The notes beneath the pieces were generated by a model that was given only the letters and a program-made list of their open reading frames with translations, was not told where the DNA came from and ran no database searches. 24,000 nucleotides of DNA from Bacillus sp. Hm123. GTDB taxonomy: Bacteria > Bacillota > Bacilli > Bacillales > Domibacillaceae. The stretch lies in the NCBI RefSeq assembly GCF_051842975.1, contig NZ_JBPXRT010000005.1; one strand, given 5' to 3'. Shown in pieces: positions 1-15,560 of this stretch; position 1 is the stretch's first letter; every line of letters starts with the position of its first letter. Position numbers and translations under genes: made by a program.

Positions 1-592
1 CAGGTACTTCATCCGCGCCAGCTTCAACCATGTTGATCGCATCTTTCGTACCAGCAACCGTTAAGTTCATGTCACTTTTCTCCATTTGTTCAACAGATGG
101 ATTGATGATGAACTCACCATCGATGCGACCTACCACAACTCCAGCAATCGGGCCTTCAAATGGGATATCCGAAACGCTTAATGCTAAAGAAGAACCAAAC
201 ATCGCTGCCATTTCAGAAGAACAATCTTGATCGACACTCATGACAATACTAATAACTTGTACTTCATTACGGAATCCGTCTGCAAACAACGGACGAATTG
301 GACGATCGATTAAACGACTAGCTAACGTCGCTTTTTCACTCGGACGACCTTCACGCTTAATGAATCCACCCGGAATTTTCCCTACCGCATATAAACGCTC
401 TTCATAATTGACTGTCAGTGGGAAAAAGTCTACTGCTTTTGCTTCTTTTGATGCTGTTGCTGTGCTTAACACAACCGTATCTCCATAATGGATTAGTGCT
501 GCTCCATTTGCTTGTTTAGCGACCTCGCCGATTTCTACAGTCAGCGTTCGGCCTGCCCATTCTATGGAAAATGCTTGTTTCCCTTGCTCCAT
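1..592 (-). CDS. pnp: Polynucleotide phosphorylase (PNPase), N-terminal part; the gene runs off the left edge of the window
   Basis: Absent from the ORF track because no stop lies in the window. Reverse-complement translation from ATG (592-590) reads [113 protein letters not shown]... This is the conserved N-terminal RNase PH-like domain of Bacillus PnpA. A GAGAGGGG SD-like run lies 7 nt upstream of the ATG. Confidence 0.9.
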
Positions 593-649
593 AAATGAAC
601 CCCTCTCTATATCAATAAAAATGATGAATAATTTGCAATCCTACATAAT

Positions 650-677
650 AGCATAACATTCGTTGAATGCTCTGCAA
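650..677 (-). promoter_or_regulatory. Candidate sigma-A promoter for pnp (-35 TTGCAG, 16-nt spacer, extended -10 TGtTATGCT)
   Basis: On the minus strand TTGCAG (677-672) and TATGCT (655-650) are separated by 16 nt, with TG two nt upstream of the -10. Read by eye in an AT-rich spacer, so the false-positive risk is high. Confidence 0.25.
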
Positions 678-785
678 AGACATAACCTTTAAATTACCTA
701 TCTTATGTATTATTTACTGAAAACACATTCGTTAAGCATTTATTTTTAACATCAAATGTAAGTAAATACCAAATGTTTTAAACGT

Positions 786-8508: not shown

Positions 8509-9914
8509 CTAAAATAATGACAATTGATTTTGATCAGGTAGTGAAGCGAGACAGCCGTGATTATCTAAATACTCAATAATGGTTTTCGATACCTTGCCTC
8601 GTTGCTGTAAATCTTCCTTCGAGAGAAATTCTCCTTCTTCACGCGCTTTAACAATATTATAAGCAGCGTTCGTTCCTAAACCTGGAATCGAATTAAACGG
8701 CGGGATAAGAGATTGGCCATCTATCACGAATTGATCGGCACTTGAGCGGTATAAATCCACTTTTTGAAAAGAAAATCCGCGCTCACTCATTTCAAGAGAT
8801 AACTCTAAAACGGTCAGTAAGTTCTTTTCTTTCGGTGAAGCATCGAGTCCTTTCGCATTGATCTCCTCTAGCTTCGATTTAATCGCCGCCGAGCCTCTTA
8901 CCATCGCTTCAATATCAAAATCCTCTGCACGCACAGTAAAATAGGCAGCATAATAAAGTAGCGGTAAATGTACTTTAAAATAAGCAATCCGCACCGCCAT
9001 TAGTACATATGCAGCAGCGTGAGCCTTTGGAAACATGTATTTGATCTTTTTACACGAATCAATGTACCACTCTGGAACTTTTTTATTGCGCATTTCCTCT
9101 TCCATTTCCTCCGTTAGTCCTTTTCCTTTACGAACGGACTCCATAATTTTAAAGGCGAAGGCTGGATCGAGATCCTGGTAAATTAAATACACCATAATAT
9201 CATCACGACAGCCGATTACATCGCTCAATTCACAAATGCCGTTGTGAACCAACTCTTGCGCATTGCCAAGCCAAACGTCCGTCCCATGAGATAATCCAGA
9301 AATCTGTACAAGCTCTGAAAACGTCGTCGGTTTCGTATCTTCAAGCATTTGACGAACGAATCTTGTTCCGAATTCCGGAATGCCAAGCGTTCCCGTTTTA
9401 CACATAATTTGTTCTTCTGTCACACCGAGTGATTCCGTTCCGCTAAAAATTTTCATCACTTCTGGATCATCGGTAGGAATCGTTTTCGGATCAATTCCCG
9501 ATAAATCCTGAAGCATCCGGATCACAGTCGGATCATCGTGTCCAAGAATATCAAGCTTTAATAAGTTGTCATGGATAGAATGGAAGTCAAAGTGGGTCGT
9601 TTTCCATTCCGATTTATCACTATCAGCTGGGTATTGAATCGGTGAAAAATCATAAATATCCATGTAATCAGGAACAACGATAATTCCCCCAGGATGCTGG
9701 CCTGTCGTCCGCTTTACTCCTGTACAGCCTTTTGCTAAACGATCGACTTCCGCTCCACGAATTTGCAAATCATTATCCGCAGCGTAGCCCTTTACATATC
9801 CAAAGGCCGTTTTATCAGCGACGGTACCGATCGTTCCCGCACGATACACATTCTCTTCACCAAACAGTACTTTTGTATAGTTATGCGCTCTCGGTTGATA
9901 CTCACCAGAGAAGT
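8509..9914 (-). CDS. polC: DNA polymerase III PolC-type, exon 2 (C-terminal about 468 aa: rest of palm, fingers, thumb, beta-binding/HhH region)
   Basis: From 9914 the frame reads (N)[43 protein letters not shown]...[27 protein letters not shown]...[20 protein letters not shown]...NQLSLF, collinear with the B. subtilis PolC C-terminus. The first 15 codons of the ORF-track ORF (9915-9960, [15 protein letters not shown]) are intron domain VI sequence. Confidence 0.9.
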
Positions 9915-9917
9915 ATA

Positions 9918-9960
9918 GTGATAGGTAAACCTTTGATATTATCTCTAGCTTTTCCCCCAC
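9918..9960 (-). ncRNA. Group II intron domain VI with a candidate branch-point adenosine (position 9922)
   Basis: GUGGGGG (9960-9954) pairs with CCU(A)UCAC (9925-9918), leaving one bulged A 8 nt upstream of the 3' splice site. That is the canonical lariat branch geometry. Confidence 0.6.
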
Positions 9961-9963
9961 TCC

Positions 9964-9998
9964 ACACCGTGCATGAGGCTTTCACACTCACACGGCGT
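9964..9998 (-). ncRNA. Group II intron domain V (catalytic hairpin)
   Basis: ACGCCGUGU-GAG(U)GU-GAAA-GCCUC-AU-GCACGGUGU. This gives a 9-bp lower helix, a 2-nt AU bulge on the 3' strand, an upper helix and a GAAA tetraloop, matching the consensus GAGCCGUAUGCGAUGAAAGUCGCACGUACGGUUC. The triad position reads CGC, not AGC. Confidence 0.8.
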
Positions 9999-10021
9999 TC
10001 CATCGTTAATTTTGTTGAAGG

Positions 10022-11848
10022 TTATAGGCTAAGCTTTGGATTTCCTACTTCCGTTCTTAGCCTGTTTAGCTTTATTATTGCTTTCTTTTCGAACTTAGCT
10101 AACATTTTTTCGTAATCTTTATTCACAATCGGGTCTTTATTGTGAATAAGCATATGATATTTCTTATTAATAATAAGCAAATTGTCATACTCATCACTTC
10201 CAGCTTGTGCTGTTGGCTTAATATGGTGGCAGATTGCATTATGGGGCGTCAAACGTTCCCCTGTTATACCGCAACATCCTTTTTGAGCCACATATTTGCT
10301 TAAACGGTTGTTTTCATACAATATACTTTTCGCTTTATATATTCCCTTACGAAACATTTCAATTTCACGAACAGACACTTGTTTCAAATCTTTATGAATT
10401 GAGGACCTGTCATTCTCGTTGTAAATCGTAAATTCAGGTTTTCTCTGTCCTCGTATATCATGCCGAATCGCTTCAATAGGATATACCAGCAATCCATTGC
10501 TTTTAAATCTTGGACAACTATAGTCCCCATAAAATTTATCAATGACATTGTTTGTTTCTTTCGTTTTCACGAATATATTTCTAAATATCAATGATTTAAT
10601 ATTCGGATGAACTTGATGTCTTATCTCATTGAAGTCTTGAGATATCCTTGTCGCAATCTTGTAATAGTTATGCAACCCAAGAATATTCGCATTGAAATTC
10701 ATCACTTTTTCTGGGGTAGGACTTTTTCGAAGTTTTACTAACTGATGCCTTATGACCCCTTGCACCTTTTGTTTTGCTTTTGGGTCCATTTTTGAATTTA
10801 CAATATAACCTGTTTTAGCATCTCCCTTTTGAACTGCTCTAAATCGAATACCTAAAAAATCTGTACCGTTTTTACGCAAATTAGTGATTTTACTTTTTTC
10901 TTCACTTATCTCAAGCCCTAATCTTTCTTTGAGCCATTTTTCCACTGCTATTTTAATCTTCCTAGCATTTTCATAAGAGTTTGTGAATATTTTAAAATCA
11001 TCTGCGTATCTAACAAGATACATTGGCTTTAGCCTTGTCTTTTTCAGTGCATCCGTTTTATTTCGTTTCAGTTTATAGGGTACTCTAGTCGGCTTTGTTT
11101 CCCACTGATTAGAAACCCACCAATCTAATTCATTCAGCACTACATTGGTAAGTAGTGGCGATAAAATACCACCTTGTGGAGTCCCTTTTGTAGAAATGCC
11201 TTCACCTGTAATTTCAGCTTTAAGCATCTTTTTAACAATAGATAAAACTTTCTTGTCCCTTATTCCTATCGTCCATAGCTGCCTTATTAGTTTTTTATGA
11301 TTCACGTTATCGAAAAATCCTTTGATATCTACATCAACCACGAAGTGCTGATGACTATGATTGACCATGTGATAACATCTTGCTAGTGCATCATGTGTAC
11401 TTCTTTTTGGTCTAAATCCATAGCTCTGAGGATGAAACCTCGCTTCCACAATCGGTTCAAGCACTTGCAAGAACATTTGTTGTATTAATCTATCTTCAAT
11501 TGTTGGAATACCAAGTGGTCTCATCTTGCCATTTGGCTTCGGAATGAATAATCTCCTAACCGCATGTGGCGAGTAGTTCTCAAGTCTTTTCCTTGTTAGT
11601 CTAACTAATTCATCGGCATCCATTTTATTCAAATGCTTAATCGTATGTCCGTTTGTACCTTTCGTTTTACTGCCCGTATTGCTTTTCAAGTTTCGAAAGG
11701 CTAATAAAATGTTTTCTTCAGAAATAATCAGCTTATAAATGTCTGTAAAATAGCGATCACTTTTGCTCTGTTCATAAAGATTATCGAAAATTGGTTGTAA
11801 GCCAAAATATTCGTTATTTCTTAGCTTTTGAATCATTAAGTCAGCCAA
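10022..11848 (-). CDS. Group II intron-encoded protein: reverse transcriptase + maturase (X/thumb) + DNA-binding + HNH endonuclease domains
   Basis: 608 aa. RT motifs: RRLFIPKPNGKMRPLGIPTIEDRLIQQ, YGFRPKRSTHDAL, VDVDIKGFFDNVNH, TPQGGILSPLLTNVVLNELD, LVRYADDFKIF (YADD catalytic box). X-domain-like: ILGLHNYYKIA. C-terminal HNH: CCGITGERL...HHIKPTAQAGSDEYDNLLIINKKYHMLIH. TTG start preceded by AAAGGAGTG (7-nt spacing). Confidence 0.93.
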   Translation of the reverse strand: MADLMIQKLRNNEYFGLQPIFDNLYEQSKSDRYFTDIYKLIISEENILLAFRNLKSNTGSKTKGTNGHTIKHLNKMDADELVRLTRKRLENYSPHAVRRLFIPKPNGKMRPLGIPTIEDRLIQQMFLQVLEPIVEARFHPQSYGFRPKRSTHDALARCYHMVNHSHQHFVVDVDIKGFFDNVNHKKLIRQLWTIGIRDKKVLSIVKKMLKAEITGEGISTKGTPQGGILSPLLTNVVLNELDWWVSNQWETKPTRVPYKLKRNKTDALKKTRLKPMYLVRYADDFKIFTNSYENARKIKIAVEKWLKERLGLEISEEKSKITNLRKNGTDFLGIRFRAVQKGDAKTGYIVNSKMDPKAKQKVQGVIRHQLVKLRKSPTPEKVMNFNANILGLHNYYKIATRISQDFNEIRHQVHPNIKSLIFRNIFVKTKETNNVIDKFYGDYSCPRFKSNGLLVYPIEAIRHDIRGQRKPEFTIYNENDRSSIHKDLKQVSVREIEMFRKGIYKAKSILYENNRLSKYVAQKGCCGITGERLTPHNAICHHIKPTAQAGSDEYDNLLIINKKYHMLIHNKDPIVNKDYEKMLAKFEKKAIIKLNRLRTEVGNPKLSL

Positions 11849-12580
11849 CTAATCACTCCTTTGCGAAGTTTTCGTTCTCTTTAGTCATACACGAATCTGA
11901 CTTATTGTAGGTTTAGTTTCAACATTAACGACTTGTGCCCTTCCCTCTGAAATGTTTTATCCTCCGACCTATTGAGTATTCAGTCATCAGCGGCATTTCT
12001 TCATCGGTACTACAGCACTACTGCCACTCTCATAAAATGTGTTATAGCAATTTGCCTTTCCACATACCATCGTCATCGAAGTGCAACCTTCTCTATATGT
12101 CGAGAGCTTCACACGTTCCACTATTTCTATCTGTACATATTCCCTTAGGCTCCCCCTAAATTCCGCTGAGCTTGATTGTGCCTGTAACACAATATGGATT
12201 TTCATAACCAAACGCTTACTCATCCACACTCAGAAGTCCTAACATGGACTCCGTAACATTTCTACTACGTGACATTCACGAAAAGTCAGTCGAGGGTTCG
12301 TCCCAGTGATTCTACTGATTCTAACCATAGGAATTTTATAGACACCAGACCTATCATTCACAGAAAGTTAATACCTTCCTTTCCTCGTCTTAAACGTTAG
12401 GGTGAACTTCAGCCTGCTTTAACGGGCTTCAAACGATGTTGATGTTTGCAATATCTCCATCGCTTGCCGTAGCTTCAGTGAGTGCGTTTCAGGACGTTAC
12501 CCCATCATTCCACACTTCGAAATAGCAGTTCTCCTAGCAAATACTAGTGCTTAACCTTTTCAGTTAAGAACGTGTCACAC
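11849..12580 (-). ncRNA. Group II intron ribozyme domains I-III and the 5' part of IV
   Basis: 732 nt between the GUGUG 5' end and the IEP start. No credible coding potential. The 74-aa and 80-aa track ORFs here lack SDs and homology. I did not fold this segment. Confidence 0.7.
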
Positions 12581-15497
12581 TCAAATCAATATCCGGGACT
12601 TTATCCCCTTTAAACCCAAGAAACGTTTCAAATGGGATGTCATGGCCATCTTTTTTATATGGAATTCCGCAAGTTGGACACTCTTTATCAGGTAAGTCAA
12701 AACCAGAACCAACGGAACCATCATTAAAGAATTCCGACTGCTTACATTTCGAACAGACATAATGCGGTGGCAATGGATTGACTTCAGTAATTTCCATCAT
12801 CGTCGCAACGAAGGATGACCCTACCGAACCACGTGAACCAACAAGGTAGCCATCTATCAGTGATTTTTTTACAAGTTTATGTGAAATCAAATAAATAACG
12901 GCAAAACCGTGCCCGATAATACTTTTTAACTCTTTTTCTAAACGGGCCTCTACGATGTCTGGAAGTTCCTCTCCGTATATACTGCGCGCCATGTCATAAC
13001 TCATTTCACGCGTCTCATCATCTGCCCCTTCAATTTTAGGGGTATATAGATCATCCTTAATCGGCTTAATTTCATCTAAACGATCCGCAATTTTATTCGG
13101 GTTAACTACGACGACTTCTTTCGCTTTCTCCTTACCTAAAAAACCGAAAGCATCGAGCATTTCATTCGTTGTTCGAAAATGAACATCCGGCAATTGATGG
13201 CGGTTGAGCGGATTCGCTCCCCCTTGAGAATTGACTAAAATTTTGCGATGAATCTTATCTGTAGGATTTAAATAATGAACATTTCCTGTAGCACAAACAG
13301 GTAGATTCATCTTTTCACCGATCTCGACAATGTTAGAAAGAATGTCTTCAAGTGCATGATCATCACGAACAAGTTCAAGCTCTAGTAAATGCGCATACAC
13401 TTCTTTCGGATGAATTTCTAAGTAATCGTAAAAAGCCGCTTTTTTCTCCGCTTCTTCGCTTCCTTTTTGCATCATGCTCTCAAATACTTCGCCTTTATCG
13501 CAAGCTGAACCGATGATCAAGCCTTCGCGATATTTTTGTAACAACGAACGTGGAATTCGTGGCACACGATAAAAATAATTAATATGAGAAATCGATACTA
13601 ATTTAAACAAGTTTTTTAAGCCGACATCAGTTTGGGCAAGAATCGTACAATGATAAGGACGCGCTCGCTTGTAAGCATCTCCTTCACCCATATGATCGTT
13701 AAATTGATCATGATACGTAATCCCTTTTTCAGCGGCATCTTGAAGCATTTTCAACATTAAATAGCCTGTCGCTTCGGCATCATAAATCGCCCGGTGATGC
13801 TGAGTTAATTCGACATCGAATTTCTTAGCTAACGTATTTAAGCGATGGTTTTTCATACTAGGATATAAAAAACGCGCTAATTCTAACGTATCAATGACCG
13901 GATTTGTTGCCTTTTCAATGTTGTATCGTTCATAACCAGCTTGCAAGAAGCCCATATCAAAGGAAGCGTTATGAGCGACGAAAATCGCATCCGCTGTCCA
14001 TTCTTTAAACTTTTGTAATACCTCTTCCACTTCAGGCGCATTTTCCACTAAATCATCGGTAATTCCAGTTAGGTTAATTGTAGTCGCGGATAACGGATGG
14101 TGTGGATTGGCAAACGATTCAAAGCGATCAATAATCTCTCCATCCTTAATCTTGACACCCGCTAATTCGATAATCGTGTCATAAACAGCCGATAATCCTG
14201 TCGTCTCCACGTCAAAGACGACATACGTTTCATCTGGTAAAAACCGATGAGCGTCATGATAAGCAATCGGTACGCCATCATCAACTAAATTTGCCTCAAG
14301 ACCGTACAATATTTTAATCCCATTTTTCTTTCCGGCACTGTACGCTTCTGGAAAAGATTGAGCGACGGCATGATCGGTAATCGCGATCGCTTTATGGCCC
14401 CATTTACTTGCTTGGGCAACCAGTTCACTTACTGACGTCACGGCATCCATTTGGCTCATTGGTGTATGCAAATGCAGCTCGACTCGCTTTTCATCTTCTG
14501 GCGCTAGATCTTGACGAGTAACTGGAGGAATTTCATTAACGTCATTAGCAATCATCACGAGATCTCGAACAAATGTATCATTCTGAACCGTTCCTCGTGC
14601 TCTTACCCACATTCCTTTTTTCACTCTGTTGAAAAGAGCCGCATCTTCTTTATCCCGAGAAAACATTTTTACTAGCAAGGAATCGGTGTAATCGGTAATT
14701 TTAAAAGTAAGCAATGTTCGACCACTGCGAAGTTCTTTTGTTTCCGCATCAAATACATATCCTTCGATCGCAATCCGGCGCTCTTCATCTTGAATTTCTT
14801 CGAGCTTTTTAAATTCAGCATCGTCTTTGATTTTCAATCCAAGCATTAATGGGCCATCAAATTCCTGCCCTTCTTCTTTGGCACTTGCTTCTCGTTTTTG
14901 CATATCAACAACCGCTTGCATCGCTCGCTCAGCGTCTTCTTTTTGCTTCGCCTCTAAAAATTGTTGAAAAGCTTCATCTTTTTCTGCTTGACTTACTTCA
15001 ACATCAAAAGAAAAAGAAGGGAAGCCATAATTTTGATACACCTGGACGACCCAGTCTCCATACTTATTTTTTAATGCCATCCCTTCCGCTTCATTATTGA
15101 CTGCAACGACAAGCTTATTGCCTTTGATAGCAGGTAATTGCTTCGTTAGTAAAGCAAGCATCGGCGGTGAGATACCTTCTAATTGCTTAATGCATAAGTT
15201 CCAATATTGTCCGATCAACACATCGGACACTTCCGGATTTCTTGCTTTCATTGAAAATGTGACTGTCGCAATTTCTTTAAAAGTTTGCGCTAACTGGTTC
15301 GCAAACAGCTCTAACACTTGACTAGGAACTATTTGCTCCACTAAAAATGAAAAATGCCATCTTCTCTGTTGGCGCTCAACGGTCAGCTTAGCGATTTCTG
15401 CTCCTTCAAAGTGCTTGACGATGGCATCGTCTGTTAAATGTAACTGCTGTAATAGTAATTGAAACCTTTGTCGCTTCCCTTGGGATTCTTCACTCAT
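12581..15497 (-). CDS. polC: DNA polymerase III PolC-type, exon 1 (N-terminal 972 codons + 1 nt: N-domain, OB, PHP, inserted 3'-5' exonuclease, start of palm)
   Basis: [24 protein letters not shown]... is collinear with B. subtilis PolC. It includes [14 protein letters not shown] (PHP), the exonuclease motifs FDVETTGL / [11 protein letters not shown] / [10 protein letters not shown], the Zn-finger region HYVCSKC...CPTCG, and ends ...[14 protein letters not shown] 15497 is preceded by GGAGG at 8 nt. The track start at 15539 (GTG) is an over-extension overlapping the proS terminator. Confidence 0.9.
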
Positions 15498-15526
15498 TTT
15501 TACGCCTCCCAACTTTTTATAATCGG

Positions 15527-15560
15527 CAGAAAAAGGCACCTAAAGCAGGCACCTTTTTCT
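15527..15560 (-). terminator. Candidate Rho-independent terminator after proS, in the polC 5' UTR
   Basis: The minus-strand RNA reads AAAGGUGCC-UGCUUUA-GGUGCCUUU followed by UUCU. It forms 9 bp, including U-G and G-U wobbles that would be C-A mismatches in a plus-strand transcript, so the structure is strand-specific. Confidence 0.4.

Follow-up and report, generated by a model that had tools for sequence, protein, structure and literature searches.

We analysed a stretch of 24,000 nucleotides (nt) from Bacillus sp. Hm123 (contig NZ_JBPXRT010000005.1 of assembly GCF_051842975.1), referred to here as the window, to whose positions coordinates refer unless another locus is named, and found that a group II intron of 2,666 nt interrupts its polC gene, on the minus strand, at 12581|12580 and 9915|9914. 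The insertion splits the Asn codon of the motif P-D-I-D-L|N-F of the replicative polymerase, and the identical nucleotide of polC is occupied in 24 other loci. Judged from sequence comparison, it is very probable that the intron represents a functional, self-splicing lineage, assisted by its own intron-encoded protein (IEP), that homes to this one nucleotide of polC. An initial annotation of the window had proposed a complete group II intron with an IEP lying in frame in polC; all of its coordinates proved correct, including the two boundaries and the GUGUG...AU termini, and its central claim is reinforced by the 24 further independent genomes.

An intron in the active-site codons of polC

The interrupted gene is represented by two large minus-strand open reading frames (ORFs), which had been taken for two parts of one PolC, and Pfam bears this out because the domains of the enzyme are spread over them in a complementary manner. 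ORF 12564..15539 carries N-I, N-II, OB, PHP, the inserted exonuclease and positions 4-108 of the Pol3-alpha profile, and ORF 8509..9960 carries positions 192-260 of that profile, the fingers and HhH. Joining 12581 to 9914 in silico produces a single open frame of 2917 + 1406 nt, which encodes 1,440 amino acids (aa) from ATG 15497; this ATG is the probable start of exon 1, the mechanical ORF reaching further, to GTG 15539. Across the junction the protein reads ...KVPDIDL-N-FSGEYQ..., and the native sequence PDIDLNFSGEYQ is restored. The initial expectation that this junction would agree with uninterrupted PolC was borne out in the protein database, where the motif is continuous in 117 of 120 fragments of PolC; the matches to this search are exclusively partial proteins of <700 aa. 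The last 200 aa of exon 1 align with the PolC of Geobacillus kaustophilus (3F2B) end to end and without gaps, terminating in ...KVPDIDL. Empty sites, suggested at the outset as a comparison to make in relatives, are found in Bacillus cereus and Bacillus toyonensis, whose PolC fragments run continuously across the insertion point.

The catalytic aspartates of C-family polymerases, D401 and D403 in Escherichia coli, are absolutely conserved; at the conserved position that follows, DnaE has Asp and PolC has Asn (N970 in B. subtilis), as set out in a census of Pol III alpha genes (PMC3919608). Since PDIDL ends exon 1 and places the catalytic Asp-x-Asp just before the split Asn, the intron lies in the codons of the catalytic centre. 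All features by which PolC is recognized are present in the interrupted gene, namely N-I/N-II, OB, PHP with the DEDD exonuclease, palm and fingers, HhH, the D-x-D and the PolC-specific Asn. An in-frame stop stands five codons inside the intron and is kept in 23 of the 25 loci, so that ribosomes on unspliced mRNA would halt before they reach the ribozyme, with a truncated N-terminus as their product.

The spliced polC ORF is intact in 24 of the 25 loci, and in the remaining one, from Priestia flexa, it is restored once a second intron is removed. Exon 2 encodes 467 aa in 23 of these loci, 470 aa in one (L018 in our numbering) and again 467 aa in P. flexa after removal of the second intron. The ratio of nonsynonymous to synonymous change (dN/dS) in polC ranges from 0.026 to 0.057 between closely related, collinear intron-bearing pairs, those with indels or saturated dS (Kurthia, Sporosarcina, and the window against B. 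marasmi) having been dropped; such values point to strong purifying selection on the gene. The gene order proS-polC-rimP-nusA is canonical in the window, as it is in five loci with called genes (B. mycoides, Lysinibacillus FJAT-14745, P. flexa and two Sporosarcina). Because the synteny is canonical, the spliced ORF intact in all loci and dN/dS low, it is strongly implied that every round of replication would depend on splicing.

Ribozyme, exon recognition and encoded protein

The intron interval 12580..9915 opens with the letters GUGUGACACG and closes with CACUAU, and its termini follow the group II consensus (5' GUGYG, 3' AY), as do those of the 24 other loci of the lineage (GUG(C/U)G...AU). 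Comparison with the Rfam group II covariance models, a check that the initial annotation had proposed, gave two matches above their gathering scores: RF02004 (group-II-D1D4-5) at 12533..12335, with 161 bits and E 1.5e-36, and RF00029 (domains V/VI) at 10000..9915, whose 49.9 bits exceed the threshold of 40. Together with covariation, the RF00029 match upholds the domain V originally placed at 9998-9964 and the bulged A of domain VI at 9922 (position -8), which is unpaired between two helices and is the 8th nucleotide counted from the intron's 3' end.

RNAalifold analysis of the 25 lineage members predicts 133 pairs in domain I; compensatory double changes support 52 of these, the closing helix among them. 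The 13 pairs of domain V are 100% paired in 23 distinct sequences, three of them with compensatory changes, and the 7 pairs of the domain VI basal helix, four with compensatory changes, are likewise 100% paired. Both domains together thus comprise 20 pairs with 460 of 460 cells paired (100%) and 7 compensatory pairs, compared with 32-50% paired cells in a control in which the partners were slid. Such a covariation pattern is the signature of an RNA maintained in a functional state by selection across many hosts. The 262-nt stretch assigned to domains II-III and the 5' part of domain IV is also conserved and is predicted to form helices. All 25 lineage members have the domain V triad CGC and not the commoner AGC; CGC is a recognized variant (PMC4424553).

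The exon-binding site EBS1, which pairs with the intron-binding site IBS1 at the end of exon 1, was located by homology as the six nt 5' of the conserved U(A/C/U)UGAA in the domain I terminal loop of relatives at other sites. In 21 related introns at other sites, the 6 nt at this position pair with the intron's own 5' exon at a mean of 5.29/6, with 19 of the 21 reaching at least 5, whereas mismatched intron/exon combinations reach a mean of 2.63/6, with 6% at 5 or above. Eleven other lineage members carry the variant UUAGGU(U), which pairs with IBS1 at 7/7. A candidate EBS2 is complementary to the exon segment next to IBS1, and the two members with G>A in it both have U at the facing exon position; an EBS2-IBS2 pairing is lacking in IIC introns. 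When domain I was naively searched for segments complementary to the 5' exon, the top candidates were misleading, for example UCAGAU (intron position 681) and UCAAG (from a variable junction), and we rejected them as lying outside domain I or being unconserved.

According to this model of exon recognition, G or U stands opposite four of the five synonymous target positions (-2, -4, -5 and -11), which is suggestive of a pairing that would tolerate common synonymous variants; the pattern is not statistically significant, and we put it forward as an idea. In Priestia abyssalis and Mesobacillus maritimus PL-B2 the Leu codon that precedes the splice site is CUC and not UUG. A G of EBS1 can accommodate the difference at -4, the one at -2 creates a U-C mismatch beside the splice site, and polC is intact in both; neither intron has a change in EBS1 that matches the UUG>CUC substitution.

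The sequence of the IEP is the same as that of NCBI WP_439169191.1, which is titled 'group II intron reverse transcriptase/maturase [Bacillus sp. Hm123]'. Its reverse transcriptase (RT) domain matches Pfam RVT_1 (E 2.4e-43), with ...LVRYADDFKIF... in the translation, and its score of 363 bits over residues 45-423 exceeds the cut-off of 300 for TIGR04416, the NCBIfam equivalog for group II intron RT/maturase. The RT and maturase parts of the RT/X/HNH label first given to this 608-aa ORF therefore stand, and the HNH part has to be softened, its Pfam score being given with the points weighed below. A C..HH..N..H motif is visible at the C-terminus (CC..HNAICHH...N...YHMLIH), and precomputed HNH matches are recorded for several close relatives. 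The nearest solved protein, the maturase of the IIB intron T.el4h (PDB 6ME0), aligns over residues 48-572 across the RT, X and C-terminal parts (E 1.5e-50), but the relation is distant, and that intron is cyanobacterial with another host context. A IIB-type RNA with a class B IEP is plausible because the architecture is IIB-like, the hosts are all Firmicutes (the host range is confined to Bacillota), the phylum to which class B is restricted, and class B dominates in B. cereus, accounting for 68 of the 77 group II introns reported for the B. cereus group (PMC2504315).

The IEP ORF is unbroken in 21 of the 25 lineage members. The frameshifted IEPs, those of Lysinibacillus sp. RS11, Domibacillus mangrovi, Mesobacillus maritimus MER TA 152 and Domibacillus antri, have one or two frameshifts each, with ribozyme and spliced polC ORF remaining intact; either sequencing error or an early loss of mobility functions with splicing kept would account for them. 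In D. mangrovi and M. maritimus MER TA 152 divergence is much stronger towards the C-terminus, which is 58% identical, than in the RT part, with 77-78%. Lysinibacillus sp. FJAT-14745 has a second group II IEP of the same broad family, 45% identical, at a non-polC site about 290 kb from the polC intron on the same scaffold, and carriers of the lineage can therefore host several related introns that are potential sources of maturase in trans.

The second intron of P. flexa (KQ758627.1, at 8826..9905 of our locus L083, within exon 2, with the same arrangement in loci L084 and L085) has 1,080 nt and no IEP, its longest ORF being 94 aa. It runs from GUGCGACACGUU to CUAC within the conserved FPK|AHAAAY, matches the Rfam domain V/VI model at 9810..9905 of that locus with 55 bits, and has a domain V 87.5% identical to that of the first intron; a hidden Markov model of the lineage did not detect its domain I. 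Presumably it relies on a maturase supplied in trans, possibly the IEP of the first intron. An intron of this type is absent from the polC of the window.

We propose that polC would be transcribed with the intron included and that the IEP would be translated from its own Shine-Dalgarno sequence and TTG start in domain IV, to bind the intron RNA as a maturase, as in canonical group II biology. The 2'-OH of A9922, in ...CCUAUCAC, would then attack the 5' splice site set by EBS1-IBS1 and probably EBS2-IBS2, and ligation of the exons would follow branching. The ligated RNA would read ...GAU UUG AAC UUC..., with ...GATTTGAACTTCTCT... and GATATTGATTTGAACTTCTCTGGTGAG as predicted junction sequences, and would encode full-length 1,440-aa PolC. 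For mobility, the excised lariat-IEP particle would reverse-splice into an intron-less polC, and target-primed reverse transcription would then make a DNA copy of the intron.

Distribution and probable horizontal spread

We scanned one representative genome per species, 185,579 species in all, for relatives of the IEP. The scan identified 21 species with an IEP 69-94% identical to that of the window, followed by a sharp drop to ≤57%. In all 21 representatives at or above 69% the intron occupies the identical polC nucleotide, as judged by tblastn with 150 residues on each side of the junction, and none of the relatives at or below 57% is inserted in polC. B. mycoides CP036034, P. flexa and a second Sporosarcina, which bring the other loci to 24, have the same insertion point. 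Carriers belong to Bacillus, Lysinibacillus, Kurthia, Priestia, Sporosarcina, Mesobacillus and Domibacillus, and the 90% cluster of the IEP also includes a protein from Ureibacillus composti.

Throughout the lineage the boundaries read ...GAY AUH GAY YUN A|GUGYG ... (C/U)AU|AYU UYN, at the same nucleotide in all loci, and the introns are 2,653-2,677 nt long and present in a single copy per genome. Two sublineages can be distinguished, one with 86-95% identity to the window and one with about 70%, the latter made up of Sporosarcina, Mesobacillus, Bacillus AL-1R and Domibacillus mangrovi. The B. cereus group is polymorphic, with the intron present in B. mycoides CP036034 and B. pacificus EB422; KBAB4 is listed without group II introns (PMC2504315). 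The plasmid and phage collections contained no full-length relative above about 49% identity among the matches listed, and no vector was evident.

Between genera, 88-92% identity of the IEP contrasts with 66-68% identity of PolC. For the window and Lysinibacillus antri the values are 92.3% for the IEP and 67.5% for PolC, and for the window and Kurthia 88.6% and about 67%. Because the IEP is far more similar than the essential enzyme of its host, these comparisons indicate that the intron would have been transferred horizontally between genera and families by site-specific homing. The target motif is near-identical across genera, and this allowed spread through Bacillaceae and Caryophanaceae. 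Only copies that splice precisely survive, because polC is essential.

The features of the interrupted gene are collected in Table 1. The gene order of the window, on the minus strand, is tsf, pyrH, frr, uppS, cdsA, dxr, rseP, proS, polC, rimP, nusA and ylxR, followed by an L7Ae-like gene, infB, rbfA, truB, ribF and the start of pnp. These names were mostly assigned by eye from ORF order and translations; Pfam was applied in the window to polC and the IEP, and the positions of proS, rimP, nusA, ylxR, the L7Ae-like gene, infB and rseP have Pfam backing from related loci only. We took an 80-aa ORF within the ribozyme (11987..12229) and an antisense 127-aa ORF (9732..10115) to be mechanical ORFs. 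Positions 412..727 on the plus strand give a gathering-level Rfam match (57.8 bits, threshold 50) to the Listeria antisense small RNA (sRNA) rliD, overlying the minus-strand N-terminal coding region of polynucleotide phosphorylase. We take rliD to be antisense to pnp in Listeria, and the match probably reflects conservation of the pnp coding sequence and not a demonstrated sRNA in Bacillus sp. Hm123.

Table 1. Features of the interrupted polC gene and its intron, in window coordinates
Feature	Position	Strand	Basis or remark
polC exon 1	12581..15497	-	972 codons and base 1 of the split Asn codon; Pfam domains including the RNase_T exonuclease
Candidate IBS2, GAUAUU	12588..12593	-	exon -13..-8 (Asp-Ile codons); 6/6 to candidate EBS2
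IBS1, GAUUUGA	12581..12587	-	exon -7..-1 (Asp-Leu codons and base 1 of Asn); pairs with EBS1
Group II intron	9915..12580	-	2,666 nt, 5' GUGUG...AU 3'; Rfam matches; boundaries alike in 24 other loci
In-frame UAA	12564..12566	-	five codons into the intron; end of ORF 12564..15539
Domain I	12111..12580	-	closing helix ACACGUU/GAACGUG; RNAalifold on 25 lineage members; RF02004 at 12335..12533
Candidate EBS2, AAUGUC	12271..12276	-	position homologous to EBS2-like segment of relatives
EBS1, UUUGGU	12207..12212	-	domain I terminal loop, directly 5' of conserved UAUGAAA; located by homology
Domains II-III and 5' part of domain IV	11849..12110	-	sequence and conserved alignment
Shine-Dalgarno AGGAG of the IEP	11856..11860	-	sequence, within 5' part of domain IV
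IEP, 608 aa, TTG start	10022..11848	-	RT (YADD), maturase/X, C-terminal HNH-like motif; same orientation as polC
Domain V	9964..9998	-	catalytic hairpin, CGC triad, GAAA loop; RF00029
Domain VI	9917..9961	-	bulged branch-point A at 9922; RF00029
Presumed IBS3, A	9914	-	first base of exon 2
polC exon 2	8509..9914	-	last 2 Asn-codon bases, 467 codons and stop; Pfam DNA_pol3_alpha 192-260, fingers, HHH_6

Alternatives, precedents and significance

Several observations weigh against a functional, homing lineage. On paper, the pairing of the window's own EBS1 with IBS1 is weak: UUUGGU(U) pairs at 6 of 7 positions, four of these being G.U, with a U.U mismatch at -3. The control on relatives did not discriminate for EBS2 (5.00 against 4.67), and this element stays tentative. 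Pfam scores the HNH region of the IEP (residues 525-565) at 16 bits, below the cut-off of 21.4, which makes present-day mobility uncertain, and endonuclease-dependent mobility of the window copy is the least secure step of the proposed mechanism. The IEP is frameshifted in 4 of the 25 lineage members, so the protein is not always kept, unless these are sequencing errors.

We considered three other accounts of the interrupted gene. If the window polC were dead or dispensable and an intact paralogue elsewhere replicated the chromosome, the intron need not splice; we regard this as highly improbable, since the gene stands at its canonical position between proS and rimP-nusA, as in related loci, all 25 loci have intact exons once introns are taken out, with the low dN/dS given above, and the ribozyme is under strong structural selection. 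The only extra PolC copy mentioned in the available text of the census of about 2,000 genomes is that of Thermotogae (PMC3919608). The polC of the window is presumably the only copy in its genome, and a dispensable pseudogene copy appears very unlikely. Alternatively, the intron could be an old, vertically inherited and immobile resident of polC that only splices, its patchiness arising from repeated precise loss. The frameshifted IEPs, two of them with a strongly diverged C-terminal part, the lack of plasmid or phage copies among the matches listed, and a partial correlation of host and intron identities (Spearman 0.47) speak for such an immobile resident. It is nevertheless unlikely, as the identity of the IEP exceeds that of PolC by 20-25 points between families, which is unexpected for the less constrained protein, presence and absence vary inside the B. 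cereus group, and most IEP ORFs are intact and of full length.

A third account holds that the host has co-opted the intron as a regulator, the supply of PolC being tuned by splicing efficiency in response to growth phase, stress, temperature or Mg2+. Analogy speaks for it, since introns in other housekeeping genes, such as Geobacillus recA and Trichodesmium dnaN and RIR, have been proposed to act in regulation (PMC12584367, PMC2504315), and regulation would be compatible with persistence of the intron in many species. The sequence gives no pointer to a sensor, however, and the intron's presence in some and absence from other close relatives suggests that hosts can do without it, which makes regulation by splicing seem decidedly unlikely to us. 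We return to the functional, homing lineage as the preferred reading. Somewhat more speculatively, and with clear reservations, we suggest that the lineage may have left the mobile or non-coding niche for an obligate, intein-like residence in the active-site codons of the replicase. This would fit the EBS model, because an RNA that faces four of the five synonymous sites with G or U could recognize any Bacillales polC, and it would fit the horizontal spread across families. In some hosts there may be a drift towards an organelle-like, splice-only state, as the four frameshifted IEPs and the ORF-less second intron of P. flexa illustrate.

Bacterial group II introns lie mostly outside housekeeping genes, the exceptions coming chiefly from cyanobacteria and from the CL and ML lineages (PMC4424553); examples in housekeeping genes include recA of Geobacillus, dnaN and RIR of Trichodesmium and groEL of Azotobacter (PMC12584367). 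A survey of 29 genomes of the B. cereus group reported group II introns in polC and three repair genes, which it called 'intriguing' (Tourasse & Kolsto 2008, PMC2504315). A group II intron in polC has therefore been known since 2008, and the present one is a further example. The rarity claimed by the initial annotation holds in so far as such introns mostly avoid housekeeping genes, and its novelty was overstated, given the 2008 report and the frequency of the lineage in Bacillales. The 2008 intron, known from one sentence that names neither strain nor site, has the same host gene and comes from the same bacterial group, to which B. mycoides and B. pacificus of our lineage also belong, and it probably shares site and lineage with the window intron. 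Cross-genus distribution, an active-site target and horizontal transfer do not appear in the available text of that report, and our literature search found no description of how broad the lineage is, of its constant placement within the catalytic motif or of its transfer between families.

The recA intron of G. kaustophilus (Chee & Takami 2005, cited in PMC2504315 and PMC12584367) is alike in kind, as an ORF-carrying intron in an essential or housekeeping gene of DNA metabolism, in Bacillaceae and in several related strains. It differs in its gene and in its reported occurrence in four thermophilic strains of three species (as cited in PMC2504315), and the likeness is one of description. Introns also lie in the replication genes dnaN and RIR of Trichodesmium erythraeum, where ORF-less copies need the maturase of a related full-length intron (PMC12584367), an arrangement resembled by the polC of P. 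flexa, in which one intron carries an ORF and the other has none. These introns, however, belong to a cyanobacterium and to another intron class and include multiple ORF-less copies, whereas the window has one intron with its own IEP. Active-site inteins and group I introns, such as the split inteins of cyanobacterial DnaE (PMC3919608) and the group I introns in recA and nrdE (PMC2504315), follow the same strategy of occupying indispensable, invariant codons. Residence in the most conserved codons makes the target invariant across species and imprecise loss lethal. Their means are different, namely protein splicing or DNA homing endonucleases as against a ribozyme and a reverse transcriptase here.

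The intron also matters for annotation, since gene calling splits an intron-bearing polC in two or misses it. Gene calls are inconsistent in four loci (L001, L002, L084 and L087), where both exon fragments, one or neither is called, and an interrupted polC is consequently easily missed or tallied as fragmented in automated surveys. Introns go unmentioned in the available text of the census of Pol III alpha genes, which covers about 2,000 genomes and takes fragmented genes to result, as a rule, from frameshifts (PMC3919608).

The polC intron raises the questions of how splicing can be efficient enough despite coupled translation and of how a ribozyme-guided element moves between genera. It provides a natural, genetically tractable Gram-positive system for the coexistence of a retroelement with an essential gene. 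As more than 20 species have a retroelement in the codons for the catalytic centre of their replicative polymerase, the viability of these bacteria would have to hinge on efficient RNA splicing.

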